DNA of 64,000 nucleotides from Candidatus Nomurabacteria bacterium (GTDB taxonomy: Bacteria; Patescibacteriota; Saccharimonadia; Saccharimonadales; UBA7683): NCBI GenBank assembly GCA_020631865.1, contig JACKGS010000002.1, forward strand, positions 109,534 through 173,533, in the 5' to 3' direction. The position numbers were made by a program, and so were the translations under genes. The notes under the pieces were generated by a model. It was not told the DNA's origin. It ran no database searches and was given only the letters and a program-made list of their open reading frames with translations. Shown one piece after another: positions 4,898 to 53,940 of the stretch. How positions within the stretch are numbered: position 1 is the stretch's first letter; every line of letters begins with the position of its first letter.

Positions 4898-6531
<1,634 letters not shown>

Positions 6532-7148: not shown

Positions 7149-7225
7149 TGGTGGGCGATGGTGGACTTGAACCACCGACCTCGTCATTATCAGTGACGCG
7201 CTCTAACCAACTGAGCTAAACGCCC
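7149..7225 (-). tRNA. tRNA-Ile (anticodon GAU), CCA encoded
   Basis: Reverse complement GGGCGTTTAGCTCAGTTGGTTAGAGCGCGTCACTGATAATGACGAGGTCGGTGGTTCAAGTCCACCATCGCCCACCA. Folds as a cloverleaf with anticodon loop CTGATAA and one T-T mismatch in the acceptor stem. Confidence 0.93.
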
Positions 7226-7266
7226 ACAAGCTGAAATTCGACATGTAAAAGAAAAAAATCACAGTA

Positions 7267-7343
7267 TGGTGGAGCAACAGGGACTCGAACCCTGGACCCC
7301 CGCCTTGCAAAGGCGGTGCTCTAGCCAACTGAGCTATTGCCCC
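7267..7343 (-). tRNA. tRNA-Ala (anticodon UGC), CCA encoded
   Basis: Reverse complement GGGGCAATAGCTCAGTTGGCTAGAGCACCGCCTTTGCAAGGCGGGGGTCCAGGGTTCGAGTCCCTGTTGCTCCACCA. The G3:U70 alanine identity pair is present. Confidence 0.95.
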
Positions 7344-7956: not shown

Positions 7957-11225
<3,269 letters not shown>

Positions 11226-11230
11226 GACTA

Positions 11231-11297
11231 GATTTTGGATTATTGATTTTAGATTTTAGTTTTCTATAATCTATAATCAATGTCCAACAATCTAATC
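11231..11297 (+). repeat. heptamer-periodic hairpin in 23S trailer
   Basis: 5' arm GATTTTG GATTATT GATTTTA GATTTTA, loop TTTTC. 3' arm TATAATC TATAATC AATGTCC AACAATC. The arms pair imperfectly. Confidence 0.7.
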
Positions 11298-11449
11298 TAT
11301 GTTTGACCAGTTTTTGATGAGTATCATAATGTATATTCATGCAATTTGTTTCAATTTAATAATTTAGACCAAAACTTGCCGTCATCGTGAACTTGTTTCA
11401 GGATCCGGTATGGATGATCATCGACCAACTTCTCATTGAGCGAGAAGTG

Positions 11450-11515
11450 GACTGAAGACTGGAGACTGGAGACTGGAGAATTTATTCTTCAATCCTCAAT
11501 CTTCAATCCTTAATC
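11450..11515 (+). repeat. heptamer-periodic hairpin in 23S-5S spacer
   Basis: (GACTGAA/GACTGGA)x4, loop ATTTATT, then (TCAATCC/TCAATCT/TTAATCT)x4. By hand the arms pair with one mismatch per heptamer and G-U pairs on the + strand only. Confidence 0.75.
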
Positions 11516-11538
11516 TACTTCTTGCCTGTGGCAAGAAG

Positions 11539-18598: not shown

Positions 18599-19480
18599 TT
18601 ATAACTTACTTCCATAGCCAGCTATAAAGGCACCGCTACCCATAACATTTTTACCAGCAGGCTTAAGAGTCTCGATTATCAAGCTGCCCTCGGCTGTTTT
18701 AATAGATAATTTTTTCTCAGATGTTACAGTTATTGATCCGGTGTTACCATTTGGATTTATGATATCAGAAGCCGTAGCATCTAATATAACTACATCTTTG
18801 CCCGCAATTTGAGTACGTGATTTTGGCCATGAAGAGTATGCACGTATCTCTCTTTCTAGAACAGTCGCTGGTTTTGAAAAGTCTAATATGCCATCAGACT
18901 TAACTAGTTTTCTTGAGTATGTTGCTCGGTCTGGGTGTGGTTGACTTCTCGGCTTAGTTTCGTTATTTAGGTATTTTGGAATATGCATAGATAGCATTTC
19001 GGCACTTAGGTTAATAAGTTGTTTTGTGAGCTCAGAGTTGTTGACCTTTAAATCAAGTTTTAATGTTTTTTGAGCAATTAATTTACCCGTATCCATTCCT
19101 TCATCAATTAGCATTAAGCTGACTCCTGTTTTTTCTTGGCCACTTAATATCGAAAAGGTGATCGGATCTGCGCCTCGCCATTCTGGTAACAGAGAAAAAT
19201 GGCTGTTAACAATCCCAAACTCAAACTTTTGAATAACTTTTTTTGATACTATAATTCCAAAATCAATAAGTATAGCAACTTGGCTATCAAAATTTTTCTC
19301 AAGAATTAACTCATCTAGTTCCGACTTGGTGCTAACACCAAAAATTGGAGGCTGGCTAATAGTGACCTTCATTTCGTGCACCGTAGTTGGCTTAGTAATA
19401 ATTGCTTCAATTTCAAAGTGCTTCTCAAGAAGTCGCAAACTATCAGCAGCAACGGGACCACTCCCAAAGAATACAATCAT
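18599..19480 (-). CDS. fmt: methionyl-tRNA formyltransferase
   Basis: Has MIVFFGSGP... and NSHFSLLPEWRGADPI. Lies downstream of def. Confidence 0.92.
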   Translation of the reverse strand: MIVFFGSGPVAADSLRLLEKHFEIEAIITKPTTVHEMKVTISQPPIFGVSTKSELDELILEKNFDSQVAILIDFGIIVSKKVIQKFEFGIVNSHFSLLPEWRGADPITFSILSGQEKTGVSLMLIDEGMDTGKLIAQKTLKLDLKVNNSELTKQLINLSAEMLSMHIPKYLNNETKPRSQPHPDRATYSRKLVKSDGILDFSKPATVLEREIRAYSSWPKSRTQIAGKDVVILDATASDIINPNGNTGSITVTSEKKLSIKTAEGSLIIETLKPAGKNVMGSGAFIAGYGSKL

Positions 19481-19503
19481 CTGCCATCTCCATTTTCAGA
19501 TGA

Positions 19504-19590
19504 GCAATATGAAATATGAAGTATAAAATATGTGTTCCATTCCGCGGTAGACTGCAGCCTCTCCATATTCCATATTCCATATTCCATATT
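19504..19590 (-). repeat. 28-bp heptamer-periodic RNA hairpin in the def-fmt spacer
   Basis: On the minus-strand RNA, (GGAAUAU)x4 (from + 19563-19590) pairs with AUAUUUU AUACUUC AUAUUUC AUAUUGC (from + 19504-19531). Hand count: 22 Watson-Crick pairs, 4 G-U pairs and 2 mismatches. The loop is about 31 nt. Confidence 0.8.
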
Positions 19591-19612
19591 TCTTTTCTCG
19601 TATTCCATTTTG

Positions 19613-20188
19613 CTAGCCCCACAATATAGAGTTGTCTTTAATGTCCTTCTCGTAGTCAAGCGGCTCCAGCCCACCCCCGGGCATTAATCTGAAGAAGGCC
19701 TCGGGATCGTCTTTGATGTGGTCAATAAATACCATGCCATTCGTGTGGTCTACCTCATGTTGTAAGATTCTTGCTAAAAATCCATAAGCTGTTACACGGA
19801 ATTCTTCGCCACGTTCGTTTAGTGCCTTAACTTTTACGCCATGATAGCGCTTAACCTTTCCGTATACATCCGGTACACTTAAGCAGCCTTCATAATCATC
19901 TTCGAGTGGCTCTATAGTTTTGGTTATTTCAGGGTTTATAAAAACTGTAAATTTTTTATCTTCGGTATTTTCAAAATCATTACGAACAAGAAATATTCTG
20001 TAAAGCTTATTCACTTGTATGGCGGCAAGACCAACAGCTGCTTCATGATCACGAGAATTCTCCCAATCAATCGTTGCTTCTCGCATATCACTGATCAGTT
20101 TTGTAATTTCATCTGTAATAATACCAACACGAGCTGATTTTTTACGTAAATTTGGTTCCGGCAATGTAACAATATCATCTTTATTCAT
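19613..20188 (-). CDS. def: peptide deformylase
   Basis: Motifs GLAAIQV, EGCLSVP and HEVDHTNG. Confidence 0.95.
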   Translation of the reverse strand: MNKDDIVTLPEPNLRKKSARVGIITDEITKLISDMREATIDWENSRDHEAAVGLAAIQVNKLYRIFLVRNDFENTEDKKFTVFINPEITKTIEPLEDDYEGCLSVPDVYGKVKRYHGVKVKALNERGEEFRVTAYGFLARILQHEVDHTNGMVFIDHIKDDPEAFFRLMPGGGLEPLDYEKDIKDNSILWG

Positions 20189-20248
20189 CTGAAGTAGTAT
20201 ATCAGACAGGAGTGGATGAGTTAAGGGATGTATAGTGTGCTTAGTGCT

Positions 20249-20278
20249 AGGAATATGAAGTATGAAATATAGAAAAAG
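20249..20278 (+). repeat. solo purine-rich heptamer arm (same family as 19504-19531 and the complement of 30148-30185)
   Basis: AGGAATATGAAGTATGAAATATAGAAAAAG closely resembles the reverse complement of the 3' flank of the four-helix-bundle cassette (GAGGAATATGAAAAATGAAATATGAAAAATGG). Confidence 0.6.
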
Positions 20279-20329
20279 GTAATTAAGACAGTGTGCTGTG
20301 GAAAACTGATCATCTGATCCATAATTTTA

Positions 20330-20358
20330 TTGACAGCCATCGTAAGCTTAAGTACAAT
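20330..20358 (+). promoter_or_regulatory. near-consensus promoter of the giant surface-protein gene
   Basis: TTGACA (20330-20335), 17 nt, TACAAT (20353-20358). Confidence 0.65.
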
Positions 20359-20402: not shown

Positions 20403-23400
20403 GTGGGTAATATAAATACATCGACATGGGATCTATATGGATCGGGAGACTTGGAATTTGAAGATACTCCAAAAGATGGAGGGTCGTCTTTTGGGGCTGT
20501 TTCAGGCCAAGAAAGGCCTCATGTTTTTGAATCTCAAGATTCAATTTCGAATCATCCTAGTGAAGATAAATTAGATGTTTTAAATTCAAATACAGAGCCT
20601 GCTTCTGGCGGCGTTAGTGATAATAGCAATAGGAATCAAAAGTCTAGCCCATCTTCTTCTGGTAATACGCTATTATCTCCACGCCCTAACAAACCCAATG
20701 ACTCAAAGCATTCTTGGAGGAAGCCACTTTTAATTACGGTAATTTTACTTTTGCTACTAGGTTCGATAACTACATTAGCTCTATACCGTAATTCCGTGGC
20801 TAAATACAATAATTTGAAATCTGCTCAAAGCGCTTTACAGCAAGAGTTGCTGAAATCAGATGAAGCTAGCGCGGAAGAGCTTAAGGAGCTGGGCGACAAA
20901 GTTTCTATAATACGCGGCGAATTAGATAAAGATATTCCAGAGGATCTTCAGGAGCAATACCAAGATTTACTGCTTCAAATAAACTCTTTAACACAGAGCT
21001 CTAATCAGGCTGTTGCAAGTTCCGCCCAAGATCTACTCGCAAAATTAACCAACCAAGCTGGTGCTGGTATTTCACTTTCTCCGGACGGCAAGACCATTAC
21101 AAACTCTGGTGTACTATCGGTTAATAGTCAAACGGGTAATTTGAGTATTCAAGGTACGGCTAATCAAACAAATGTTACTCAAAACGGATCAACAACAACT
21201 ATTGGTACGGCTCAAGATATTGCGCAAACATCTAGTCCGACGTTTAACAATCAGACCTTAACTGGCAACGGAAATATCCAGGGCGGTTTGACAGTTGGCG
21301 GAACTACAACAACCAATAACCTAACAATACAATCTAGTGGAACGCAAAATGGTTACGCACTTTGTGATGCTAGCAATAACTGTGGTTACTCTGGTGCTGG
21401 TAGTAGTTATGTTCAGGGTGGTAATAGTTTTGGTAACCCTGCTTACTTGGGTACAAATGATAACAACTCTCTTAATTTAGAAACCAATGGAACTACTAGG
21501 TTGACAATAGATACCGCCGGCAACACAAGCTTGACTGGTAACTTAACAACCCCCGGCAGCGTTTCTGCCTCAAGCCTAAGCGGAAATGGCTCAGGCGTAA
21601 CAAATGTTGATGCTACTGCCTTAAACGGTAACACAGCAGGTAATAATAGCGGTCAGATTTCACTTAATAATGGTACAGTCAATTCTAATCTTAATTCAGA
21701 TCTTCTTGACGGCCAACATGGAAGCTACTATCAAAATGCAAGCAATATTAATGCCGGGACACTTTCAGATGCAAGACTGTCTTCTAATGTAACCCTGCAA
21801 GGCAATAGCTTTAACGGTATTAATCAATTAGTGCAATTGAATGGTTCCGGGTATTTACCGTCACTTAACGGTTCTTTAGTAACAAATGTAGATGCGCTAA
21901 CGCTTCAAGGAAATAGCGCTAGCTACTTTACAAATGCAAGCAACATAGCCTCTGGAACACTTTCGGATTTACGCCTCAGCTCTAACATACCCTTAAAAAA
22001 TGCCACTAACACCTTCACCGGCACAAATAACTTTGCCGGAATAACTGCAACCGGAATTCTACAAGGTGGCTACAGTGTTTGCGATGCCAGCAATAACTGT
22101 AACTACGCTACAAATTCTCAATTTGCATCTGCAATTCTACAGGGTGGCAACTCTTTTGGCACAACAATGAGGATAGGTACAAACGATAGCCAGAGTCTTG
22201 TTTTGAAGTCTAACAATGTTGATGCTATGACAATTGCTTCCGATGGTAGGATAGGTATAAATAGTACACCATCCGCTGTCTACAGACTGTCAGTGAATGC
22301 TGATGCTAGGGCTATGTTTGTAGGGCATGTTTCAATACCCGTACTTGATAATAGTTTTTCATTGAATGTTTCAAATTACTATCAATCACATGGTGCAATT
22401 GGTATTCGTCTGAATGCAGGAACAACCGCTCCGCACATTAGGTCATATCTAGATAGCACTAAGGTATTTGAGGTTGGATCAGCCGGTCAAGGGTATTTTG
22501 CCGGTAATACTAGTATTGGAACTACGTCTGATCTTGGACAGTTAGCCGTGGTGAATACAAGTACAACACAGGCGGTTATGGTGGTTCGCGGAGCTTCTGG
22601 TCAAGCAGGTGATTTGCAGCAATGGCAGAATAGCTCAGGTACAGTATTGAGCAGGGTGGCTAGTAATGGCGCTATACAGCTAGGTTTTAATGTAGCACTA
22701 CAAGCGGAGCATTCTGGTGGCGGTGGTTTTGTTGATCTCATAAAAAGAGGGAGTGGGAATAGTGTATATGTAGGTAATACAACTTCAGAGACATTTTTGC
22801 AGGGGCATAATTATACCTTCCTTACAACTTCAAGTTCTCAGGGTGGGATAAGGCTATATGCCTCGGAGGTTACAAAGTACGGAGGTATTGGATACTTGGG
22901 TACTAGTTCAATTCCGTGGAATCAATTATTTCTACAGTCTGTAACAAATTCAGCTACGCCACTATACGTTAAGGGTGCTTTGTCACAAACTGCCAACTTA
23001 ACCGAATGGCAAGATAACTCAGGCTCTATTTTAGGATCAGTCAATAACTTGGGGAATCTTACTATGGACAGGGGTTTTAGTGCAATCAGCGCTGGCGTGG
23101 CAGGTGCAACGTATAGTATTGGTTATAATGGAGTATCAATAGCGGCATGGAGATCAGATCCTGTTTGGGAGTCTGGTAGTTCAGTTCTTTCACCTTCTGC
23201 TGGAAAGTCCATATTTGTGAAGAGCTCAGCGGTCGGTGATACGGCGCTTAAAGTTAAGGCATTCACTGGTCAAACCGCAGACCTCCAACAATGGCAAAAT
23301 AGCTCTGGCACGGTGCTTTCTAGAATTACATCTGACGGCAGGTTGGCTGTTACGGATGCAAGTGATGGCGTTGTAGTTGCTAGCGTAGGAAGTCAGCTTG

Positions 23401-24407
23401 TGGGTGCGGGCATAAATCTTGGACGAGGTAAGTATGATACAAGCTCGTATGGCTTATGGGGTAACCCTGATTCGGCAACAGGAGATGGCAATATAACGAT
23501 TGCACCAAGGAATAAAAACAATAGTAACGGTGCTTATGTGACAGTGGGCCAAACTAGCTCATCAACTGACAGGGGATATATCAGGCTACAGGCTGGGTAC
23601 TACGCTGGGAGTTCAATGTATGGTAGAGTTGTGATTTCTACGGGATCTACGCCAGGTGCAAATTCATTTGTGGTTAATGAAAACCAGCAAGTTGGCATTG
23701 GAACGGCTACATTTGGAGCCAGCAATAAATTTACAGTTAATAGTAATACTACATCGGATAATTCGGCTTCAGTACAAATAAATACCGGTGGCACCAGTAA
23801 CAAGGGGATAGTAGTACAGGGTATTACTTCTCAATCAGGTGATTTACTGCAGGCACAAGATTCAACTGGTGCTGTGCTTGCAAAGATTGATGCAGATGGG
23901 GACTTGACGGCAAGGAGCGGGGACTTTGGTTCATCTTCGGTTACGTATGGTTTGTTCAGCAGAGGTTCTAGTGCAGCAGTTCTGGGTCAGGCTTATGGTG
24001 GGGATGGCATTAGAGGTCAATCATTGACGAATGGATCGGTAGCTTTGGCAGCCACTGGATGTGCCGGTTGTGCTGGTGATCTTCTTCAGGCAAGAGATTC
24101 GGTGGGGACAGTTTTGGCTAGAATAACTGCTAGCGGGGATTTGACGGTGAAGAATGCGAGTGTTGAAGGAGCGTATATTACGTTCAGTAATAATATCCGT
24201 GGATATAATGTGAGTGTTACAGCTTCGGCTACCTCTCAGACAGTTAGTTTCGGTACAGCACATCCAGATGCAAACTATGCAGTTTTCTGTACCCCAGACT
24301 GGAACACCAGCTGTTATGTAAGCAATAAAACAGTCAACGGCTTCACACTAAACTACGGCACCGCCGCCCCAGCCGCCCAACAAGTAGACTGGTTCGTCGC
24401 CAGATAA
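20403..24407 (+). CDS. 1334-aa membrane-anchored fibre/adhesin-like surface protein
   Basis: Disordered N-terminus, then one TM helix (LLITVILLLLLGSITTLALY), then a coiled coil. Long G/N/T/S-rich repeats follow (two CDASNNC[GN]Y modules, two LSD[AL]RLSSN motifs). Five copies of G/A-DL-xx-W/A-Q-[ND]S-xG-x-[VI]L-x-x-[VI]. C-terminal ~70-aa globular domain ending DWFVAR. Confidence 0.85.
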   Translation: MGNINTSTWDLYGSGDLEFEDTPKDGGSSFGAVSGQERPHVFESQDSISNHPSEDKLDVLNSNTEPASGGVSDNSNRNQKSSPSSSGNTLLSPRPNKPNDSKHSWRKPLLITVILLLLLGSITTLALYRNSVAKYNNLKSAQSALQQELLKSDEASAEELKELGDKVSIIRGELDKDIPEDLQEQYQDLLLQINSLTQSSNQAVASSAQDLLAKLTNQAGAGISLSPDGKTITNSGVLSVNSQTGNLSIQGTANQTNVTQNGSTTTIGTAQDIAQTSSPTFNNQTLTGNGNIQGGLTVGGTTTTNNLTIQSSGTQNGYALCDASNNCGYSGAGSSYVQGGNSFGNPAYLGTNDNNSLNLETNGTTRLTIDTAGNTSLTGNLTTPGSVSASSLSGNGSGVTNVDATALNGNTAGNNSGQISLNNGTVNSNLNSDLLDGQHGSYYQNASNINAGTLSDARLSSNVTLQGNSFNGINQLVQLNGSGYLPSLNGSLVTNVDALTLQGNSASYFTNASNIASGTLSDLRLSSNIPLKNATNTFTGTNNFAGITATGILQGGYSVCDASNNCNYATNSQFASAILQGGNSFGTTMRIGTNDSQSLVLKSNNVDAMTIASDGRIGINSTPSAVYRLSVNADARAMFVGHVSIPVLDNSFSLNVSNYYQSHGAIGIRLNAGTTAPHIRSYLDSTKVFEVGSAGQGYFAGNTSIGTTSDLGQLAVVNTSTTQAVMVVRGASGQAGDLQQWQNSSGTVLSRVASNGAIQLGFNVALQAEHSGGGGFVDLIKRGSGNSVYVGNTTSETFLQGHNYTFLTTSSSQGGIRLYASEVTKYGGIGYLGTSSIPWNQLFLQSVTNSATPLYVKGALSQTANLTEWQDNSGSILGSVNNLGNLTMDRGFSAISAGVAGATYSIGYNGVSIAAWRSDPVWESGSSVLSPSAGKSIFVKSSAVGDTALKVKAFTGQTADLQQWQNSSGTVLSRITSDGRLAVTDASDGVVVASVGSQLVGAGINLGRGKYDTSSYGLWGNPDSATGDGNITIAPRNKNNSNGAYVTVGQTSSSTDRGYIRLQAGYYAGSSMYGRVVISTGSTPGANSFVVNENQQVGIGTATFGASNKFTVNSNTTSDNSASVQINTGGTSNKGIVVQGITSQSGDLLQAQDSTGAVLAKIDADGDLTARSGDFGSSSVTYGLFSRGSSAAVLGQAYGGDGIRGQSLTNGSVALAATGCAGCAGDLLQARDSVGTVLARITASGDLTVKNASVEGAYITFSNNIRGYNVSVTASATSQTVSFGTAHPDANYAVFCTPDWNTSCYVSNKTVNGFTLNYGTAAPAAQQVDWFVAR

Positions 24408-24440
24408 CCCCCCCTCCGCCTTCATCTCTCTAAGGAGATT

Positions 24441-24467
24441 GCCTGGCGAGGACAGTCCTCGCCAGGC
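24441..24467. repeat. REP-like palindrome (upstream copy)
   Basis: GCCTGGCGAGG-ACAGT-CCTCGCCAGGC, a perfect 11-bp stem. Confidence 0.85.
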
Positions 24468-24486
24468 GGTAAATTAGTGATACAAT

Positions 24487-25152
24487 ATGTTTATGCCAAG
24501 TCGGAATGCTATTAAAGATTATGTTTCAGATAGTTTCTATCATATATATAATCGTGGTGTTGAGAAGAGGAAGATTTTTTTAGACGAGCGAGATTATGCA
24601 GTTTTTCTTAGCTATTTCAAGGTGGCTCTTAGTGAACGAATAGATGAAGATATAGAAAATGAGGCACTTTCAGTGGTTGAAGAAGCTAGGCTAAGGAGGT
24701 TAAATTTACATAAAGATATCGAACTAGTTGCATACTGTCTTGTGCCCAATCATTTTCATTTATTAATTTATCAAAAGGGAAATCCACAAGCTATCACTGA
24801 ACTGATGCGTTCCACGATGTCAGGGTATGTTAGATATTTCAACAAGCGATACAATAGAGTCGGCAGTTTATTTCAAGGGAGATACAAAGCTAGTTTAATT
24901 GATGAAGAAGCATATCTATGGCATATATCGCGCTATATACATTTAAATTCATTAGATAAAAAGACTGAACCCGAACAGGATGAACACAGTAGCTACCAGT
25001 ATTATATTGGTAAAAAGAGCGCAGAATGGTTGCATCCAGAGAGAATTTTAGAAATGCACGGCTCCATAAAAGAGTACACAGATTTCGTAGAAGATTACAG
25101 AGATCGCAAAGAACTCCTCGACGAAATAAAACACCAACTAGCCAACCACTAA
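24487..25152 (+). CDS. REP-associated tyrosine (Y1, IS200-like) transposase, RAYT-like
   Basis: Has YHIYNRG, the HUH motif VPNHFHLLI, YFNKRYNRVGSLFQGRYK, and the catalytic-Tyr region ISRYIHLN. 221 aa. Confidence 0.85.
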   Translation: MFMPSRNAIKDYVSDSFYHIYNRGVEKRKIFLDERDYAVFLSYFKVALSERIDEDIENEALSVVEEARLRRLNLHKDIELVAYCLVPNHFHLLIYQKGNPQAITELMRSTMSGYVRYFNKRYNRVGSLFQGRYKASLIDEEAYLWHISRYIHLNSLDKKTEPEQDEHSSYQYYIGKKSAEWLHPERILEMHGSIKEYTDFVEDYRDRKELLDEIKHQLANH

Positions 25153-25154
25153 AT

Positions 25155-25200
25155 ATTGCCTGGCGAGGACAGTCCTCGCCACAATAGTCCTCGCCACAGT
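25155..25200. repeat. REP-like palindrome (downstream copy plus partial third copy)
   Basis: TGGCGAGG-ACAGT-CCTCGCCA (8-bp stem) followed by AGTCCTCGCCACAGT. Confidence 0.8.
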
Positions 25201-25275
25201 AATGAAGTTGAGGTTTTGCTAGATAGTTTTTGGAAGGTTTAGTATAATGGTTATAGTAAAAATAAGAGGAGATTT

Positions 25276-25776
25276 ATGGATCAGTTTAGAAAACCGGCTT
25301 TAAAGCCTAAGGCAGTTGTTAATACCCAAGAGCGTGTCGTTGTTGCCCAGGAGCCGAATCGCTCAAAGTTGCCATATATAATAATTGCTGTGCTTTTGGT
25401 CGTAATAGTTTCTGCTATAGCGGTTGTGGCAAAAAAGAACTACATGGCTCATTCAAATACATTAGTTGGAGTAAAGGACGATAAATATCAAGCGTTATTT
25501 TTAACCAATGGCCAGGTGTACTTCGGTAAAATTAGTTTGGCAGGTAAAAATACAGTAAAGATAAATGATATCTACTATCTGCAAGTAGCGCAGAAAGTAC
25601 AGCCAGAAGATAGCAAGCAAGAAACACAAGCAACTGAACCTCAGTTGATTAAGCTGGGCGAAGAGTTACACGGTCCAGAAGACGAGATGTTTATTGAACG
25701 TTCGCAAGTTTCTTTTTGGGAGAATCTAAAAGATAATAGCAAGGTCGTTGAGGCTATCAAAGCTTATAAAAAATAG
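25276..25776 (+). CDS. hypothetical N-terminally anchored protein
   Basis: 166 aa. One TM helix (LPYIIIAVLLVVIVSAIAVVA). SD AGAGGAG. Confidence 0.65.
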   Translation: MDQFRKPALKPKAVVNTQERVVVAQEPNRSKLPYIIIAVLLVVIVSAIAVVAKKNYMAHSNTLVGVKDDKYQALFLTNGQVYFGKISLAGKNTVKINDIYYLQVAQKVQPEDSKQETQATEPQLIKLGEELHGPEDEMFIERSQVSFWENLKDNSKVVEAIKAYKK

Positions 25777-25799
25777 TAAGCATTTGCTATAATTTAATT

Positions 25800-26234
25800 A
25801 TGACAAAAACGGATCCATACATTACAAGAAAAGATTTAGATGAGGCTATGGATAAAGTTGTCTCTGGCATATCGGATGTTATTGCTGATCTCGCACATAA
25901 TATAGATCAAAGATTTGAAGGTGTCGATCAGAGATTCGAAAGCATTGATAAAAGATTCGAAAGCATTGATCAAAGATTCGATGGTGTTGAAAAAAGATTA
26001 GACAACATGGATATTAGAATGTCGCGTATAGAATACGACGTTTCTGATATTAAAACTGATATCGTACACTTGAAAGAATCACACGATAGACTGCTTAATA
26101 CCGTAGATAGATTCATTGGTAGAATTGAGAAGTATGAAACAGAACTTTCAGCAAGAGATTCCCAGTTCGAGAGACTATTAGATTGGGCTAAGAAGGTTTC
26201 TGTCAAAACCGGTATACCTCTAGAAGACTTTTAG
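25800..26234 (+). CDS. coiled-coil protein with six 7-residue (21-nt) tandem repeats
   Basis: IDQRFEG VDQRFES IDKRFES IDQRFDG VEKRLDN MDIRMSR. 144 aa. Confidence 0.65.
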   Translation: MTKTDPYITRKDLDEAMDKVVSGISDVIADLAHNIDQRFEGVDQRFESIDKRFESIDQRFDGVEKRLDNMDIRMSRIEYDVSDIKTDIVHLKESHDRLLNTVDRFIGRIEKYETELSARDSQFERLLDWAKKVSVKTGIPLEDF

Positions 26235-26241
26235 TAAGCAT

Positions 26242-28185
26242 TTAAAGAAGATTAATTGGGTCTAGGGTAAATTGCCAGCGCTGTGGAAGATTCTTGGCAA
26301 TTTCTACTAATGTAGACCTTCTTGATGAGCTGACGGTAAGCTGTTGATAGAACAATTTACCTCGATGCTCATGGAAAGCCGGCGATGGTCCACGTACGAA
26401 TATACCTTTATATTTTATCTTCAGTTCTTTTGTAAGTTTTTGTGCTGCATTTTCAGCAGTGGATACAGATGCATAGCCGGTTGTTAAATGAAGCAAGAAT
26501 GTGTGTGGTGGCATGTGTTCTGCGCTACGTTCATTAATTTCATAATCGTAAAATTTTCCATAATTTTGTTCACAAGCAAATTGAATTGCCGGATGATCTG
26601 GATTAAGTGTCTGGATTATTACATGGCTTTTATGCCCGCCTCTGCCAGCGCGACCGATTACCTGAGTGGTGAGTTGAAATGAGCGTTCGCAACTTGAATA
26701 ATCTGGGATAAATAATTCTGAATCTGCCTGAATAATACCAACGGTATTTAAGTGAGGAAGATCTAATCCTTTGGCGATGCCTTGAGTACCTATTATTATC
26801 TGAATTTTATTATCGTACAGGTCTTGGTATCTGTTATGAAGTTGTTCATTCTCCGGGGTGTCACCATCAAATCTTGCTACGACACTATCCGGAAATAGTT
26901 TAATAACTTCTGATTCAATTCGCTTGCTCCCAAAGCCCTTAAAGTCTATGTTTGGGCTTTTGCAATCTGGACATACTTGTGGTGGTCTTTGCGTCAGTCC
27001 ACAAGTATGACACTTCAAAATATTTTTGTCGTGATGAAGTCGAAAGGGTATGTGACAATTTTGACACTCGGCAGACCACCCACAGTCAGAGCACAGGCTC
27101 ATTCTAGCAGTTCCACGACGATTATGAAAAAGTAAAATTTGTTCGTTTTGGGTAATGGAATTATTCATCGCTTCTAGTAGTTTTTTGCTGAATAACTGAT
27201 GTGTTCCAAAAGAGCTTCTGTCTCGCATGTCCACAACTTCGATAGCGGTATTTCTTGCTTGAGTAGTATTATTTAAAGATATAACCGGCGTTCCGGTAGC
27301 TTGAGCAATAAAGTAGTCAGCTATGGCTGGTGTTGCACTGCCGAGCACTAATTTTGCATTTTTTTGTAGCTCAGCTAATTTTCTGGCAACTCGTAGAGTA
27401 GAATATTTTGGTTGTGAATCTTGGATATAGCTGGGCTCATGACACTCATCAATAATAATAAGTCCTAAGTTGGATATTGGCGCAAAAAGACTAGACCTTG
27501 GCCCAACAATTACCCAGGGATCTTCGGTGCCATTAAGTATTTGCCAATTTTTATGTCGCTGAGATTCTGTAAGCCCAGAATGTAAAACCAGCACTCTGTC
27601 ATGTAGCTGTTCAAATTCTGTTGCTAATTGTGGCGTTAAAGAAATCTCGGGTACCAAAACTAAAACACTTTTTTGTTCTTTGAGTATTTTTTTGGCTAGC
27701 TCTTGATAAACCCGTGTTTTGCCTGAGCCAGTTATGCCATGAAGTAGATGTGTAATAGAATTTGAATTTTCAATTTCCACTATGGCATTTTGCTGATCAC
27801 GTGTTAGCGTGTGTAGGGTTTCAGATCTTTTGATTTTCATAAAATTGTTTTCGGCGGTACGCCTCTTTTTGTCTAGGCCTTTTGGTAAAATTGACTGCAA
27901 AACTATAGAAAGCCTGGTGGCGTAAAATTCACTTATCCAAACAGCTAGATCAATTAAGTGCTTCGGAACGGCCTCATCCAATGTTTCATCTATATCTTTT
28001 GTTGCAAACCTGGGTTTTGAAGTAGTGTCGACAATTATCCCCAGCTTCTTTAGCTTCCCAAATGGAATACGCGCTACGGTACCAATGGTAATTTCTTTTT
28101 CAGAGCTATAAGTTAAAAGATCTTCACGTCCACCAATAACTCCAATCGGACAAACTAGATAGTAATTCACATATTCAAGTATCAA
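26242..28185 (-). CDS. priA: primosomal protein N' (replication restart helicase PriA)
   Basis: Walker A GITGSGKT, DExH-like IIDECHE, and the Cys-rich insertion CSDCGW..CQNC...CHTCG...CPDC. The start is uncertain (TTG 28185 or GTG 28170). Confidence 0.92.
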   Translation of the reverse strand: MILEYVNYYLVCPIGVIGGREDLLTYSSEKEITIGTVARIPFGKLKKLGIIVDTTSKPRFATKDIDETLDEAVPKHLIDLAVWISEFYATRLSIVLQSILPKGLDKKRRTAENNFMKIKRSETLHTLTRDQQNAIVEIENSNSITHLLHGITGSGKTRVYQELAKKILKEQKSVLVLVPEISLTPQLATEFEQLHDRVLVLHSGLTESQRHKNWQILNGTEDPWVIVGPRSSLFAPISNLGLIIIDECHEPSYIQDSQPKYSTLRVARKLAELQKNAKLVLGSATPAIADYFIAQATGTPVISLNNTTQARNTAIEVVDMRDRSSFGTHQLFSKKLLEAMNNSITQNEQILLFHNRRGTARMSLCSDCGWSAECQNCHIPFRLHHDKNILKCHTCGLTQRPPQVCPDCKSPNIDFKGFGSKRIESEVIKLFPDSVVARFDGDTPENEQLHNRYQDLYDNKIQIIIGTQGIAKGLDLPHLNTVGIIQADSELFIPDYSSCERSFQLTTQVIGRAGRGGHKSHVIIQTLNPDHPAIQFACEQNYGKFYDYEINERSAEHMPPHTFLLHLTTGYASVSTAENAAQKLTKELKIKYKGIFVRGPSPAFHEHRGKLFYQQLTVSSSRRSTLVEIAKNLPQRWQFTLDPINLL

Positions 28186-28209
28186 GTATCAAGTATCAAG
28201 TATCAAGTA
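28175..28209. repeat. perfect heptamer tandem array (TCAAGTA)x5
   Basis: Five exact 7-nt units overlapping the annotated priA start, in the priA / wHTH-gene divergent region. Confidence 0.9.
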
Positions 28210-28321
28210 TCTCAATAGTATTGCGCTAAGAATCATCATTATCAAACACCCTATGTAAATGGGTCAAAATTGTGAAATATTGTACTTTCAACAATAATGA
28301 ACGTGGTATAATTGAATAGTA

Positions 28322-29273: not shown

Positions 29274-29732
29274 ATGTCGTTAAAACTGCGTATTGAAGCC
29301 GATATTAAATCGGCCATGCTTTCTCGTGAGCAATTTATTGTCGAAACTCTTAGGACAGTTAAAGGTGTAATTCTTAATGAAGAGGTGGCCAAGGGTGTTC
29401 GAGATGCAGGTTTAGACGATGCTTCAATAGAGAGTCTGCTGGCAAAAGAGGTTAAAAAGAGGCATGAAGCTGCTGAACTATTTGAAAAAGGTGGAAATTC
29501 TGAGTCGGCTAAAAAAGAACTTAAAGAAGCCGAGCTTCTACAGGCATACTTGCCGAAACAGCTTTCTGAAGAAGAAATAAAATCAGTCATAGATTCAGTT
29601 ATTTCTGAAACTGGAGCTAGCTCTGCTGGGCAGATGGGACAAGTGATCGGTGGCGTTAAAGCCAAAGTCGGTAATCAGGCAGACGGCGCGCTTATTGCAC
29701 GGTTGGTGAAGCAGATGCTTGCACAAGACTAG
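29274..29732 (+). CDS. GatB/YqeY domain protein
   Basis: Has IKSAMLSRE...TLR, AYLPKQLSEEEI and GQMGQVIGGVKAKVGNQADG. Confidence 0.85.
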   Translation: MSLKLRIEADIKSAMLSREQFIVETLRTVKGVILNEEVAKGVRDAGLDDASIESLLAKEVKKRHEAAELFEKGGNSESAKKELKEAELLQAYLPKQLSEEEIKSVIDSVISETGASSAGQMGQVIGGVKAKVGNQADGALIARLVKQMLAQD

Positions 29733-30185
29733 AAATACGTAATAAGAAAAAAGAAATATGGGAAAACAAAACGAACTAAAAGCATTTCAAGATCTAACAG
29801 TATGGCAAGAAAGTAGAAAACTGTTCTTTATAATTTATAAATTAACTAAACAGTTTCCAAAAGAAGAGGTTTTTAGTTCAGTTTCACAGATGCGTAGATC
29901 TTCTATGTCCATCTCGTCTAATATTGCAGAAGGATTTGGAAGGTCATCAATAGCGGATAAGTTACATTTTTATATTATGGCTCGTGGGTCTTTGACAGAA
30001 TTGCAAAATCAAATAATACTTACTGGAGATGTTGGTTTGATTACAGCAGAAAATATAAAAATAGCACTTGAACAAGCTGAAATAACCCATAAACTGGTAG
30101 TAGGTTTAATTAAAGTAACTGAACGGAGAAAACAATGAAGCGAAGTCCATTTTTCATATTTCATTTTTCATATTCCTCTTCTCTC
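29732..30185 (+). other. four-helix-bundle gene cassette bracketed by heptamer-periodic arms
   Basis: The 5' arm AGAAATACGTAATAAGAAAAAAGAAATATGG contains the ATG. The 3' arm is CCATTTTTCATATTTCATTTTTCATATTCCTC. By hand, about 22 of 31 positions can pair across the ORF. Confidence 0.6.
29758..30138 (+). CDS. four-helix-bundle protein ('23S rRNA intervening-sequence protein' family)
   Basis: 126 aa. Family-typical FxDLxVWQ, QMRRSSxSISSNIAEG.GR and ARGSL.EL. Confidence 0.85.
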   Translation: MGKQNELKAFQDLTVWQESRKLFFIIYKLTKQFPKEEVFSSVSQMRRSSMSISSNIAEGFGRSSIADKLHFYIMARGSLTELQNQIILTGDVGLITAENIKIALEQAEITHKLVVGLIKVTERRKQ

Positions 30186-30199
30186 ATGGGAGACTTCCG

Positions 30200-30754
30200 A
30201 TGATAATATTTTTCGGACCTGCTGGGGCGGGTAAAAGTGTACAGGGTCAATTATTGGCGGCTCGATATGGTTGGAGATGGCTTTCTGCGGGACAATTACT
30301 TAGAGATACCAGAGACCCTCAGCTTTTAAAAGAGATGCAAAGCGGTGGTTTGGCTAATAGCGAAAAGGTTAATGAAATCTTTGAAGATGCTTTAATAAAG
30401 GCTAAAGATATAGATGGCGTTATATCTGATGGTTTTCCGAGAGAGCTTAGTCAGGCAAAGTGGTTAGTAGATGCACTGCCAAAGCACGAACGTTCAATAG
30501 CATTGGTTGTCGTGTTGGAGGTTCCGCGTTCAGAAATCGACAACCGTCTTAAGTTAAGAGGTAGAGCTGATGATACCCCAGATGCCATAGAGCAAAGATT
30601 GAGTATTTATAGGCAAGAAGTCTACCCAATCTTAAATTACTTTGCCGAAAAAGGTTTAAAAATAGCACATATAGACGGAACGGGTTCGGTTGGCCAGGTA
30701 CATGACCGCGTTGTTTCTGAGCTTCAAGCAATTAATCTAAATCCAGCGGTATAA
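30200..30754 (+). CDS. adk: adenylate kinase (short form, no Zn lid)
   Basis: P-loop GPAGAGKS, then DGFPR and RxDD. Followed by map, as in spc-operon ends. Confidence 0.85.
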   Translation: MIIFFGPAGAGKSVQGQLLAARYGWRWLSAGQLLRDTRDPQLLKEMQSGGLANSEKVNEIFEDALIKAKDIDGVISDGFPRELSQAKWLVDALPKHERSIALVVVLEVPRSEIDNRLKLRGRADDTPDAIEQRLSIYRQEVYPILNYFAEKGLKIAHIDGTGSVGQVHDRVVSELQAINLNPAV

Positions 30755-44060: not shown

Positions 44061-44813
44061 ATGGCTCAAATTATTGCAGTGACAAACCAAAAAGGTGGAG
44101 TGGGCAAGACGACCACTACTATAAATATTGCATATAATTTGGCAAAGGCTGGTAAAAAAGTTCTGCTAGTTGATTTAGATCCTCAGGGAAACGCCTCGAG
44201 CGGGCTCTCGGTGAGCAAATCTAAAAAAACAACTAGAGATGTGCTTTCAGGAAGCGTTGCATTAGAAGGTGCGGTGCAAAAAACGGAATATGCAAATCTT
44301 TTTGTACTGCCAACAGATGCTGAGCTTGCGACACTTGAAACTGAAATTGCCACTGCTAAAGACCGTGCGCTACGCCTAAAAAAAGCTCTAAGTAACACAG
44401 GGTATGATGTTATTTTTATTGATTGTCCGCCAAGCCTAGGGTTATTAACCGTAAATGCACTAACTGCAGCAACTGCGGTAATCATCCCTGTGCAGACTGA
44501 ATATTATGCACTTGAGGGATTGGGTCAGCTACTTGAGACTATGAAGCTGGTCCGGCAAGCATTAAATCCTCGCCTGTCTATTTTAGGTGTAGTTATGACT
44601 ATGCATAATGCGCGAACAACACTTTCTGCACAAGTAGAAGCTCAGCTTAAGGCAAACTTTAAAGACCGTTTGTTTGAAACTGTTATTCCACGTAATATTA
44701 GAGTAGCCGAAGCGCCAAGTCACGGTAGGCCAGTTGGTGAATATGATAAGTGGAGTAAGGGTGCTCGTGCATATAAGTCGCTTAGCAAAGAGATTATGGA
44801 AAGAATATCATGA
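44061..44813 (+). CDS. parA: chromosome partitioning ATPase ParA/Soj
   Basis: Deviant Walker A NQKGGVGKTTT, plus DLDPQGN and IDCPPSL. Confidence 0.95.
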   Translation: MAQIIAVTNQKGGVGKTTTTINIAYNLAKAGKKVLLVDLDPQGNASSGLSVSKSKKTTRDVLSGSVALEGAVQKTEYANLFVLPTDAELATLETEIATAKDRALRLKKALSNTGYDVIFIDCPPSLGLLTVNALTAATAVIIPVQTEYYALEGLGQLLETMKLVRQALNPRLSILGVVMTMHNARTTLSAQVEAQLKANFKDRLFETVIPRNIRVAEAPSHGRPVGEYDKWSKGARAYKSLSKEIMERIS

Positions 44814-44817
44814 TATC

Positions 44818-44953
44818 AGGAGAAGAAATATGAGATACGGGATAGATAATATGGAGAAAATTATGGATGATCGGGAATTTAATCTAATCAAGCAAACTCG
44901 TCAGGTTGATTGCATATCAGCCCATATGCTATATTCTATGTTCCATATTCCTG
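44818..44953 (+). repeat. ORF-less heptamer-arm element in the parA-parB spacer
   Basis: The 5' arm GAGAAGAAATATGAGATACGGGATAGATAATATGGAG and the 3' arm CCCATATGCTATATTCTATGTTCCATATTCCTG resemble the flanks of the 29732-30185 cassette. Confidence 0.6.
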
Positions 44954-44972
44954 TGACCGCAGGGGGCATCTC

Positions 44973-45833
44973 ATGAAGGGGCTAGGTAAAGATTTTTCAG
45001 CTTTAATTCCTGATGATATGCTCTCCGAGGCGTTGGCGGTTGGCCCATCTACCGATAGCGTAGAGCAGATTGCACTAGATAAAATAGCCCCAGATCCTCA
45101 GCAGCCACGCAAGCAGTTTGATGAAACGGCATTAGAAGAGCTGGCTTCTTCTATTAGTGTTCACGGCATAGTGCAACCACTGATTGTCGCTAATAGTGGC
45201 AGTAGTTATATTATTATTGCTGGCGAGCGGAGATATAGAGCTGCGCAATTATTAAAACTGGATGTTGTGCCGGTAATAGTACGTTCTTTCGGAGATCAAG
45301 AAAAGTTAGAAATTAGCTTGATTGAAAATGTCCAACGTGAGGATTTAACTAAGCTAGAGCTTGCCACTGCATATGCTAGATTACACGATGAATTTAATCT
45401 TGATCACAAAGAGATAGGCCAGAGGGTTGGCAGAAGTGAATCTGCAGTTGTAAATATTATTAGACTCTTGAAACTTCCAATCAAAGCCAAAGAGGCGCTT
45501 AACCGAAATTTAATTACCGAAGGACACGCACGACAGATAGTGGCTCTTAAAGAAGAATCTGAGCAGCTTAAGCTTTTGGATTTAATTATTAAAAATCATT
45601 GGACCGTACGTCAGGCAGAGCAGTATGTAGTGGGTCATAAAAAAGCTGGCCAAGATCAAAAGGCTAAAGAGGGTATGCGTCTAACAAAGACAGAGACTAA
45701 AGAAACTAAACAACTTTCAAAAAGACTTAATGCACCGGTTAGCATTAAGCATATGGCTAAGGGTGGACGTTTGATAATTAACTTCAAAGATGAGTCACAC
45801 TTAGATAACCTGATGAAAAACTTGCTAGATTGA
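44973..45833 (+). CDS. parB: chromosome partitioning protein ParB/Spo0J
   Basis: Starts MKGLGKDFSALIP with SD AGGGGG. Has GERRYRAA and an HTH region. The longer ORF from 44910 runs through the repeat element. Confidence 0.93.
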   Translation: MKGLGKDFSALIPDDMLSEALAVGPSTDSVEQIALDKIAPDPQQPRKQFDETALEELASSISVHGIVQPLIVANSGSSYIIIAGERRYRAAQLLKLDVVPVIVRSFGDQEKLEISLIENVQREDLTKLELATAYARLHDEFNLDHKEIGQRVGRSESAVVNIIRLLKLPIKAKEALNRNLITEGHARQIVALKEESEQLKLLDLIIKNHWTVRQAEQYVVGHKKAGQDQKAKEGMRLTKTETKETKQLSKRLNAPVSIKHMAKGGRLIINFKDESHLDNLMKNLLD

Positions 45834-52227: not shown

Positions 52228-53282
52228 TTAGGCTTCACGAGCTAGTTGGGATTCGTAAGATTGTAGTTTGGCAATAATATCGTCTATTTCGCCATTCATG
52301 GCTTGTGGGATACTGCTGCGCGAATACTGCACGCGGTGGTCGGTAATTCTGTCTTGTGGGAAGTTGTAGGTACGGATTTTTTCACTTCTGTCACCAGACC
52401 CAATAAGGCTTTTTCTTTGAGCAGAAAGCTTGGCATTTTCTTCGTCAAGCTGTTTTTGAAGTAGGCGAGAACGAAGTACACTCATAGCTTTAAGCTTATT
52501 TTTAATTTGAGACTTCTCGTCTTGATTGGTCACTACGATTCCAGAAGGTAGGTGAGTAATGCGAACGGCGGAATCGGTAGTGTTTACGCTTTGGCCTCCG
52601 TGGCCAGAGGCGCGGTAGGTATCTATTTTTAAATCGGCATCTTTAATTTCTACATCTGTTTCTTCGGCCTCGGGCATTACGGCTACGGTAACGGTAGAGG
52701 GTATGAATACGCCCCTGGCTTTCAGTAGCAGGAACACGTTGAACGCGGTGCACACACACCTTCAAACTTCAGCTGTTTGTAGGCGTCCTCACCTTGGCCA
52801 TGAAATAACTCTTTATAGCCGCCAGAATCGCTGGCGTTTTCAGACATAATTTCGGTTTTTAAATTATGCGTTTCGCAGTAGCGTAGATACATTCTTAAGC
52901 GGTTCTGCTGCAAATAAAGCCAGCTTCATCGCCACCGGCGCCAGCTCGAACTCAATCACGCAGTTTTTATGGTCATTTGGATCTTTTGGGGTGAGTAGTT
53001 CCATTAATCTTTCTTCCACTAATGTAGTTTTTCTCTTCTAGTTCTGGAATTTGGTTTGGCAAGTCAGAAAGCTCGCTATCATTGCCGCGCAGAATCTTCA
53101 TTAGCTTCAATAAGATGTTTTGAGAGTGTCACGTTCGTCAAAAAGCATCAATAATCTCTATCAGTTCAGCCTGTCGACGATTCTTTTCTCCAATTTTTTG
53201 GATCAGAAAACGCATCCGTGCTGAACTAATAAAATCAGTTAACTCCTTTAGTTCATCTTCTTAATTTCTGTTCGGCTTCCAT
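52228..53282 (-). pseudogene. prfA: peptide chain release factor 1, frameshifted upstream of ~52700
   Basis: The intact C-terminal 175 aa include SGHGGQSVN. Upstream fragments [32 protein letters not shown] and an N-terminal MEAEQK lie in different frames. Total length is not a multiple of 3. Confidence 0.85.
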
Positions 53283-53351
53283 CAATACCTATTATAACAG
53301 ATAGAATAGGTATTTAGAATTTACATAATCACATAAAATATGCCAAAGCCC

Positions 53352-53380
53352 TTGACAAAATTAGAGAGAGAGATTATTGT
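53352..53380 (+). promoter_or_regulatory. cassette promoter copy 1 with (AG)n spacer
   Basis: TTGACA, a 17-nt spacer containing AGAGAGAGAGA, then TATTGT. Confidence 0.5.
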
Positions 53381-53422
53381 GTTTAGTTTCAATAAAATAA
53401 ATATATCAAGAAGGAAAATAAA

Positions 53423-53845
53423 ATGAGTAAAAAACACCTGTGGCAAATAAAGAAAGTAATAGCGGGTTAACACCGGATCAAGTAGATTTCAGGGCAAAGG
53501 ATTTTGTGGGTCGTCATAATGCTGAGGTAGACTACAGGAGATTATTACGCCGAGAAGGCTCTTGAGTACGCAAAGAATACAAATACAATACATGATACTT
53601 TGCGGCTGGCAGATTCTGGCTTGTCTAAAGCTCTCAAAGGTGTAGCAGAAGAATTGAAGAAAGAACGCAGTGGATGGAATCGTAAACGATCGGAGAGTTT
53701 AGTTAACGTACATAAATTTAATGATGGTCGTAAAGTTGTTCTGTTTGACGCAAGAGAGCATTATGAACAGAATAAAGACGCGTATAGCGGCTGCTAAAAG
53801 GATGCTGAGGCTGCTGGCCATAAAGTGGATCTTGTAAAAGGTTAA
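53423..53845 (+). pseudogene. cassette 1 ORF (unknown function, several frameshifts)
   Basis: ATG-AGT-AAA start. Reading-frame pieces ...GLTPDQVDFRAKDFVGRHNAEVDY / YYAEKALEYAKNT...FDAREHYEQNKDAY / KDAEAAGHKVDLVKG join only if frames are shifted. Confidence 0.4.
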
Positions 53846-53903
53846 TACCTGCATCGAAAAGTGGATTCTTCATAAAGATAACTATTAAGTAATGATAAAA
53901 AAC

Positions 53904-53925: not shown

Positions 53926-53940
53926 GGACCAATAAAGATA

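Follow-up and report, generated by a model that had tools for sequence, protein, structure and literature searches.

In bacteria, 23S rRNA intervening sequences (IVSs) that RNase III cleaves have been reported at two sites, helix 25 or helix 45. The IVS of Coxiella burnetii has a 28-bp stem formed by its terminal repeats and is cut in the middle of this stem by RNase III; tandem heptamers (GACAGAT) are located immediately 5' of the ATG of its S23p gene and vary in number between strains (PMC4990558). The origin, spread and function of bacterial rRNA IVSs and of S23p/PF05635 proteins have been called unclear (PMC4990558, PMC11270868). RNase III processes a long hairpin in the 5' untranslated region of Haemophilus influenzae hmw1A, to which a transcribed (ATCTTTC)n array gives rise (PMC12721329). 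The heptamer passages of two further papers describe heptanucleotide simple-sequence repeats (SSRs) in cyanobacteria, in Xanthomonas (GGGAATC) and in Beggiatoaceae (TAACTGA) (PMC4692102, PMC4679880). Here we analyze a heptamer-armed hairpin in the spacer between def (peptide deformylase) and fmt (methionyl-tRNA formyltransferase) of a bacterium deposited as Candidatus Nomurabacteria.

The stretch of DNA under study, called the window throughout, comprises 64,000 nt (assembly GCA_020631865.1, contig JACKGS010000002.1, positions 109,534-173,533 of the forward strand). Its host belongs to the Saccharibacteria (TM7); the best relatives of the window Fmt in GTDB are uncultured Saccharibacteria with at most 65% identity. 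We propose that the spacer is an IVS-type element without an open reading frame (ORF), that it was gained by recombination, and that its transcript is probably a substrate of RNase III. We put the probability of this explanation as a whole at about 0.6.

The hairpin in the def-fmt spacer

The upstream gene of the pair, def (19613-20188, minus strand), encodes 191 amino acids and fmt (18599-19480, minus strand) 293. Eleven metagenome contigs from different samples (L001-L011), which were retrieved by their identical Fmt and represent one lineage, carry the identical genes. PF01327 was assigned to def on these contigs, and PF00551 together with PF02911 to fmt. The 132-nt spacer (19481-19612, minus strand) holds the entire ORF-less hairpin and is identical in the 11 contigs apart from a single-nucleotide polymorphism (SNP). 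A consensus scan yielded a promoter-like site for def (TTAACT-17-tgTATACT, 20224-20196) that ends 7 nt 5' of its ATG. The same scan gave neither a promoter-like nor a terminator-like site in the spacer, and the number of promoter-like sites in the region did not exceed that in shuffled sequences. To our knowledge, the promoters of Saccharibacteria are uncharacterised. Since the spacer contains no such site, def and fmt are taken to be co-transcribed.

All structural statements made here are predictions. The sense (minus-strand) RNA of the spacer folds with a minimum free energy (MFE) of -37.6 kcal/mol, compared to -19.45 ± 2.98 kcal/mol for 200 dinucleotide shuffles, none of which equaled it (z = -6.09). 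The antisense RNA (-24.6 kcal/mol, z = -2.8) and the single-stranded DNA of the sense strand (-11.2 kcal/mol, z = -1.5) fold much more weakly, so the structure is specific to the sense RNA. Both the helix and its strand specificity had been claimed in a preliminary description of this locus and are confirmed by these values. The main helix pairs positions 19590-19564 with 19532-19506. It consists of 26 base pairs (22 Watson-Crick and four G-U) and one 1x1 A.C mismatch, i.e. 27 positions. The earlier count by hand of 28 positions with two mismatches was thus essentially right, with the numbers of both types of pair unchanged.

Going along the sense strand, the spacer starts with a 5' heptamer array, GGAATAC GAGAAAA GAAATAT (GGAATAT)x3 G (19564-19606), of which positions 19564-19590 form the 5' arm of the helix. 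This arm is a perfect (GGAATAT)x4 repeat, in register with two or three further degenerate units. Tandem Repeats Finder (TRF) reported it as (TCCATAT)x4.1 with 100% identity at 19562-19590. The 31-nt loop (19533-19563), GAGAGGCUGCAG...GGAACAC, opens with ATGG at the counterpart of the start codon in the cassettes described below. It is followed by the 3' arm, AUAUUUU AUACUUC AUAUUUC AUAUU (19506-19532), a degenerate complementary array (x3.9 by TRF). The tail (19481-19505) contains a small 5-bp hairpin and a GGAG Shine-Dalgarno (SD) sequence (19488-19491) located 7 nt 5' of the fmt ATG; the small hairpin overlaps the SD. This tail is homologous to the one that precedes adk or atpC in the cassettes. 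The distance from the end of the 3' arm to the fmt ATG is 25 nt, one more than previously stated.

A possible upstream ORF (uORF) of 43 codons, MEYEKRNMEYGIWNMERLQSTAEWNTYFILHISYCSSENGDGR, can be read from the sequence at 19477-19608 (minus strand). It starts 4 nt past the def stop codon, and its stop codon, TGA, shares bases with the fmt ATG (ATGA). Since heptamer arms of this type are stop-free in all frames, the open frame is expected by chance and not statistically remarkable.

Several other assignments were considered for the spacer and discarded. It is not an intrinsic terminator, as an A-U-rich stem followed by GCUCAUCUG replaces the G+C-rich stem and U-tract, and a DNA cruciform is not supported by the fold of the single strand (z = -1.5). 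A phase-variable SSR was rejected at the contig level, all 11 contigs having a 132-nt spacer with four units. A scan against Rfam at gathering thresholds returned nothing for the spacer, and an E-value scan gave only a chance hairpin match to mir-556 (21.8 bits vs 84).

Relatives of the hairpin in gene cassettes and rRNA

In order to find relatives within the window, each spacer arm was scored by Smith-Waterman alignment against every 100-nt segment on both strands. The background was 12-14 ± 2.7 and the best unrelated segment scored 26-27. Scores of 32-41 were obtained in only four places: 30101-30200, 29701-29800, 44801-45000 and 20201-20350. Pattern searches with the arms resulted in 9-10 matches where 0.5-0.7 were expected. 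The first two places are the 3' and 5' flanks of a cassette between yqeY and adk. The match of both spacer ends to these flanks had been suggested before; it is supported by the scores, which are well above what low complexity would give.

The cassette carries a PF05635 gene (23S rRNA intervening-sequence protein, four-helix-bundle or S23p; 29758-30138, plus strand, 126 amino acids; Pfam E = 2.1e-32). Its 5' heptamer arm, GAAATAC GUAAUAA GAAAAAA GAAAUAU GGG (29732-29762, plus strand), contains the ATG of this ORF (29758). The 3' arm (30147-30176), identified by TRF and alignment, is followed by a tail with an SD sequence that extends to position 30199, directly before the adk ATG (30200). The two flanks are complementary heptamer arrays, GAAATAC GTAATAA GAAAAAA GAAATAT and CCATTTTTC ATATTTC ATTTTTC ATATTCC, which pair with each other in the MFE structure of the whole cassette. 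The 5' array of the spacer is identical to the 5' flank at 21 of 23 positions when one heptamer is gapped (by eye), and the 3' arm to the 3' flank at 29 of 35.

The third place is the parA-parB spacer (44814-44972, plus strand), where Smith-Waterman and pattern matches indicate a degenerate copy of both arms. It was rejected as a second functional hairpin, because its fold is no better than that of shuffles (z = 0.03). The fourth is a solo array of the 3'-arm type, UUUCUAUAUUUCAUACUUCAUAUUCC (20250-20275, minus strand), located upstream of the def promoter and conserved in sister lineages. Seven tandem arrays of period 7 were observed in the window and none of periods 5, 6 or 8-11.

Two of these seven form further heptamer-periodic hairpins, long and with other heptamer units, in the 23S-5S spacer (11226-11525, plus strand; z = -5.9). 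Their units are TAGATTT/TCTATAA (11226-11297) and GGAGACT/TCAATCC (11438-11525); in the second hairpin, most heptamers contain a C.A mismatch. In a sister lineage, the conservation of both hairpins is 99.8%.

A link to rRNA is provided by close sister genomes. Two of them, L061 (19937-20111, minus strand) and L062, have an ORF-less insert of about 170 nt in their 23S rRNA, which the 23S rRNA of the window does not contain (8654-8666). Infernal placed this insert between positions 583 and 584 of the Rfam large-subunit model, in the loop of a hairpin which we take to be helix 25. Its arms are GAAATAT GAAATAT GAAAAAT GAAATAA and CATATTG CATATTC CTTATTA CTTATTT, and the insert folds with z = -5.05. 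An alignment of the insert with the def-fmt spacer covers both arms and both loop ends with a score of 58, compared to 25 ± 5 (maximum 46) for shuffles. The sister genome also holds a second PF05635 cassette, of like heptamer type, between atpD and atpC. The prediction that further copies exist with and without an ORF thus held, given the parA-parB spacer, the solo arm upstream of def, the 23S insert and the atpD-atpC cassette. Apart from the insert, the window 23S rRNA is more than 99% identical to that of the sister, so that presence and absence of an IVS are polymorphic between very close lineages.

Based on these comparisons, the def-fmt spacer almost certainly belongs to a family of heptamer-armed hairpins whose full-length members hold a PF05635 gene (S23p/four-helix-bundle, Avd-like) in the loop. 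In kind, this family corresponds to the 23S rRNA IVS, and members of it are found in sense orientation in the yqeY-adk, atpD-atpC, def-fmt and parA-parB spacers. Copies of a single heptamer family in this clade are thus present in an rRNA helix and in three operon spacers, and another remains as a promoter-proximal relic. Like an IVS, the spacer has a stem of at least two helical turns and heptamers that abut an S23p-type start. It is not situated at the tip of an rRNA helix and, because it is not in rRNA, fails strict membership. Like the PF05635 cassettes, it has complementary arms of 7-nt period and homologous arms and tail; its 31-nt loop holds no PF05635 ORF. The spacer is an IVS-type hairpin in the sense that it is homologous to an IVS and would work like one. 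This shows that intervening sequences of the rRNA type are also present inside ordinary operons. In the literature, the only description that we found of PF05635 genes beside heptamer arms is that of Coxiella, and we found no account of IVS-type elements inside protein-coding operons or of an element that supplies the start codon of a downstream gene.

The association of PF05635 genes with heptamer arms was analyzed in 73 metagenome loci that encode relatives of the cassette protein (44-72% identity) and represent one PF05635 subfamily. The duplex energy between 5' and 3' flanks was -32.9 kcal/mol on average, vs -21.6 kcal/mol for mismatched flank pairings, and 40% of the loci fell below the 5th percentile of this control (5% expected). 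The autocorrelation of the flanks was 0.479 at period 7 and 0.27-0.304 at the other periods from 2 to 12. Arrays of period 7 occurred at 6.1 per kb within 80 nt of the ORF ends vs 0.18 per kb elsewhere; those of periods 5, 6 and 8-11 were found away from the ORF ends at about 0.02 per kb. Each cassette has a heptamer unit of its own, e.g. GAGTTAA, GTAGCTG, GATTTAA or GGAATAG. The ATG is located at the inner end of the 5' arm and the stop codon often within the 3' arm. The direction of the cassette is that of the upstream gene in 56 of 64 cases and that of the downstream gene in 44 of 59, and the median gap from the upstream stop codon to the cassette is 36 nt. A purine-rich arm in first position is of no use as an orientation marker, as this feature is symmetric under reverse complementation and uninformative on the strand.

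ORF-less heptamer hairpins were observed in the PF05635 loci and beyond. On one contig from Acidobacteriota (L037, 10981-11073), a (GTGGCAA)n/(TTGCCAC)n hairpin of about 30 bp lies directly 3' of fmt. Heptamer hairpins are therefore not confined to bacteria of the candidate phyla radiation (CPR).

Origin and possible processing of the element

In 22 other species of Saccharibacteria, def and fmt overlap or are at most 42 nt apart. Three contigs (L061, L062 and L063) have the gene order of the window and, over most of 20 kb, 93-94% identity to it. The alignment to this sister of about 94% identity breaks exactly at window positions 19478-19576, where 99 nt correspond to 18 nt in the sister. Empty sites in sister genomes, which the preliminary description had named as a check, do exist. 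The sisters and a further relative (L065) have an array resembling the 5' arm at the junction, GGAATAT GAAAAAT GAAAAAT GGGATAC GGGAAAT, and no 3' arm. In the sisters this array is called as an N-terminal extension of Fmt, MKNGIREIVKPY-IVFFG. Other relatives likewise have extended N-termini (MKNGIREIVKPYIVFFG, MADTQTKIIFFG and similar). The window Fmt differs from all of them in starting with MIVFFG, without extension. The element has thus replaced the ancestral N-terminal extension of Fmt and supplies the SD sequence and the ATG of fmt. In all probability the def-fmt copy was gained recently in this lineage, after the split from the sister.

The 3' half of the spacer (arm, tail, SD, ATG and 5 nt of coding sequence) is identical at 49 of 58 positions (84%) to the 3' flank of one cassette (L155). 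This match scores 71, compared to a median of 15 over 74 other cassette flanks. The L155 cassette is the orthologous yqeY-adk cassette of a related species, with a PF05635 protein 79% identical to that of the window. An alignment with the flank of the atpD-atpC cassette of L066 runs through the ATG with a score of 50. The 5' part of the spacer is nearer to the cassette 5' flank (21/23, one heptamer deleted) than to the orthologous sister array (27/33), as judged by eye. At the junction, ATYGTCTTCTTTGG (I-V-F-F-G) is common to adk of L155 and fmt of L061.

These similarities suggest, tentatively and at somewhat less than even odds, a recombination route. An ectopic recombination or gene conversion would have introduced the sequence from a donor of the cassette type in which most of the ORF was no longer present. 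On the 5' side the exchange could have been anchored in the heptamer array already present at the def-fmt junction and on the 3' side in the 5' ends of the adk and fmt coding sequences, which are nearly identical (ATYGTCTTCTTTGG). Because the sisters already have a 5'-arm-like array at the junction, a recombination or conversion seems a better description of the event than a clean insertion. Of the earlier view of the spacer as a miniature transposon or a deleted version of the cassette, the second half is supported by the match to the L155 flank and by a weak match of the loop to the ORF end; the first half fails, there being neither a target-site duplication nor a transposase partner.

The Fmt proteins of the window (18599-19480) and L061 (10001-10903) are only 75% identical, although the flanking DNA is about 94% identical, and by inspection the differences seem concentrated in the C-terminal half, which points to local recombination or to a relaxed constraint at fmt. 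In L064, yqeY and adk are separated by an empty 22-nt spacer (5623-5646), and in L012 (4842-5283) their junction holds a PF05635 cassette with quite different arms of the GAGTCAT type. The yqeY-adk site was thus either targeted twice or its arms have been replaced in full without losing their complementarity.

In the def-fmt transcript the arms are predicted to form a 26-bp A-U-rich stem. By analogy with the described IVSs, the chances that RNase III cuts this stem are in our estimate just under even. Cleavage would split the mRNAs of def and fmt, which are translationally coupled or overlapping in every relative. After cleavage fmt would be served by the SD sequence and ATG of the element itself.

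A number of observations weigh against this explanation. None of the 155 loci contains a donor near-identical to the 99-nt insert, the best relatives being the cassette flanks of L155 and L066. The alignment of the loop with the final codons of a PF05635 ORF and the spacer after its stop codon is weak and short and fits an internal deletion of the ORF only thinly. Cleavage by RNase III is argued from analogy, and no rnc gene is found within the 64-kb window. The lone spacer variant among the 11 contigs, a change from U to C at 19520 in L009, disrupts an A-U pair and weakens the stem; with this as the single SNP, covariation within the species was discarded as a line of support. The four G-U pairs may go back to a single mutation amplified by repeat duplication, as the four 5' units are identical. 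In 45 cassettes, 17 G-U pairs were counted vs 24 A.C and 121 transversion mismatches, i.e. no bias towards G-U. Wobble pairs were thus dropped as an indicator of selection at the RNA level, and such selection on the arms is not demonstrated for the family as a whole. As the evidence for it is limited in these three respects (G-U pairs possibly from one mutation, no family-wide bias, a variant that weakens the stem), we take the element to be most probably near-neutral or selfish, and not a regulator under selection.

A selected regulatory device would either set the def:fmt ratio, as an mRNA stabiliser or a processing site, or be a translational bridge in which the 43-codon uORF restores the coupling from def to fmt. 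We consider this unlikely. The geometry of the uORF is legible in the sequence, the small hairpin overlaps the SD, and expression of hmw1A is indeed raised by RNase III processing. The open frame, however, is a chance expectation for stop-free heptamer arms. All relatives do without the element, and the degenerate parA-parB copy shows that members of the family decay. The identity of the spacer in 11 contigs from different samples, which could be taken as a sign of constraint, is silent on selection, because these contigs were retrieved by identical Fmt and represent one lineage.

The hairpin could also have grown in place. A heptamer microsatellite at the junction would have expanded by slippage, and a fold-back or template switch would then have produced the inverted arm without any input from a cassette. 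The sister lineages do have an array of 5-7 units at this position, the perfect (GGAATAT)x4 arm is typical of recent slippage, and period 7 is the sole over-represented array period of the window (7 vs 0). Such an origin is nevertheless quite improbable. Compared by eye with the reverse complement of the local 5' array, the 3' arm has at least nine differences in about 38 positions, which is more than an event younger than about 6% divergence would leave. A fold-back cannot yield the 84% identity of 3' arm and tail to a cassette 3' flank including SD and ATG, and the 5' part, too, is nearer to the cassette flank (21/23) than to the sister array (27/33).

A MITE (miniature inverted-repeat transposable element) or repetitive extragenic palindromic (REP) element, moved by a transposase such as the Y1 (IS200/RAYT-like) protein encoded 5 kb away, is highly improbable. 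Terminal inverted repeats, small size and several copies would fit, and a Y1_Tnp gene is present at 24487-25152. The hairpins on either side of this gene, however (TGGCGAGGACAGTCCTCGCCAGGC; 24444-24467 and 25158-25181), are G+C-rich and unrelated. A comparison of filled and empty sites at def-fmt, 23S helix 25 and yqeY-adk gave no target-site duplication, and the full-length members encode a PF05635 four-helix-bundle protein, not a transposase.

Finally, there is very little to recommend the 3' arm as an internal promoter that drives fmt independently: (TTCATAT)n puts a -35-like TTCATA 17 nt before a -10-like CATATT hexamer and similar arrays precede def, adk, parB and priA, but the consensus scan described above gave no promoter-like site in the spacer and no regional excess over shuffles, with Saccharibacteria promoters in any case uncharacterised.

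Further observations and comparison with known systems

The 24-nt palindromic hairpins that bracket the Y1 gene (24444-25181) are inverted; the gene is present in L062, and L061 has shorter ORFs instead. It belongs to a block of about 6 kb (20403-26234) that separates priA from def and further encodes a repetitive surface-type protein of 1334 amino acids and two small ORFs. One of the small ORFs is a coiled coil with 21/42-nt repeats at 25905-26013. The length of the surface-type protein ranges from 1115 to 1334 amino acids among near-identical lineages, and priA and def adjoin in L012 and L064. A perfect (TCAAGTA)x5.3 array is located at the 5' end of priA (28173-28213; TTGATAC on the minus strand). 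In the nearest GTDB relative, L012 (7356-7383), the 5' end of priA has (TTGATAT)n, and both arrays give a TTGATA-17-GATACT promoter-like match (9/12).

The 16S rRNA gene (4898-6531) contains an insertion of about 130 nt in its 5' region (4974-5146), the V1 region as read from the flanking sequence. The insertion has tandem repeats of 7, 14 and 25 nt (TGCTAAA/TGCAAAA) and forms a long stem (-71.9 kcal/mol on the plus strand vs -57.0 kcal/mol on the minus strand). Genes for tRNA-Ile(GAT) and tRNA-Ala(TGC) (7149-7343) are located between 16S and 23S on the opposite strand, which is unusual for a 16S-23S spacer. Nearly 10 kb (52756-62650) contain almost no ORF of more than 100 amino acids, and the adjacent ORF with an RF-1 domain (52228-52755) has only 175 amino acids, its N-terminal half being apparently missing or frameshifted. 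The ORF-poor stretch could represent pseudogenes, assembly indels or non-coding sequence.

Lineages only about 6% apart differ in the presence or absence of the same type of element at a 23S rRNA helix and at the junction of the essential genes def and fmt; the yqeY-adk junction is a third such site relative to a more distant relative. With ORF-bearing and ORF-less forms side by side, this constitutes a testable natural system. PF05635 genes with complementary arms of 7-base period provide a signature that can be used for genome-wide searches for such elements. Provided that RNase III cleaves these stems, operons of CPR and other bacteria would be split into separate mRNAs at many "intergenic hairpins" acting as processing sites, and the long-noted heptamer microsatellites of bacteria would gain a partial explanation. 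More speculative, and in our view rather unlikely, is the idea that heptamer-armed hairpins with or without a PF05635 gene in the loop are one widespread, unrecognised class of operon-embedded elements. These would move between rRNA helices and mRNA spacers, spread by heptamer-anchored recombination or by an RNase III-released RNA intermediate, and be harmless through excision and through their own ribosome binding site and start codon. If so, the classical 23S rRNA IVSs would be only the rRNA-resident subset of the class.

Among known systems, Correia elements of Neisseria are transcribed MITEs that are cut by RNase III and have target-site duplications and conserved termini. REPINs, which are built from REP sequences, are tied to a REP-associated tyrosine transposase (RAYT) flanked by the same repeat. 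The def-fmt spacer resembles Correia and REP/REPIN-RAYT systems in being a small inverted-repeat element between operon genes, co-transcribed with them, whose hairpin would affect mRNA processing or stability. It differs from them in having neither target-site duplications nor conserved termini nor a RAYT flanked by the same repeat.

The protein of the full-length cassettes is of the same fold family as Avd, the accessory protein of diversity-generating retroelements (PF22296, bAvd-like), with a weak bAvd match (E = 0.005), and many of its relatives carry both PF22296 and PF05635. Unlike in these retroelements, no reverse transcriptase, template repeat or variable repeat was seen. The relation covers the ORF of the full-length element and not the spacer.

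As in hmw1A, one arm of a long hairpin in the mRNA upstream of a gene consists of a transcribed heptamer SSR (PMC12721329). The copy number in hmw1A varies and tunes expression (phase variation), whereas the length of the spacer is constant in 11 contigs, and the hmw1A hairpin has no link to PF05635 genes. With the bacterial heptamer SSRs, as described in the heptamer passages cited at the outset, the arrays share intergenic over-representation, a position often just 5' of start codons and sometimes an inverted arrangement (PMC4692102, PMC4679880). The SSRs in these passages are mostly direct repeats with a unit shared throughout the genome, and the several bacterial groups known to have such microsatellites have them without any gene linked to them. 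In the present family the unit differs from element to element, and the arms are complementary, with an ORF or a loop between them. A term search of PMC4679880 gave no link to PF05635, nor do the heptamer passages of PMC4692102 mention one.

The most extensive likeness is to the 23S IVSs with an S23p/PF05635 ORF of Coxiella burnetii, Leptospira and Salmonella (PMC4990558). Both have a long stem of terminal inverted repeats, 28 bp in Coxiella and 26 bp in the spacer. In both, the stem is made of tandem heptamers that end at the ATG of the ORF, the arrays of spacer and cassette ending at ATGG. Both occur in ORF-bearing and ORF-less forms, and a homologous ORF-less copy is found in helix 25 of the sister 23S rRNA. 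Unlike the 23S IVSs, the def-fmt spacer is located in an mRNA between two protein-coding genes and supplies the ribosome binding site and the start codon of the downstream gene.

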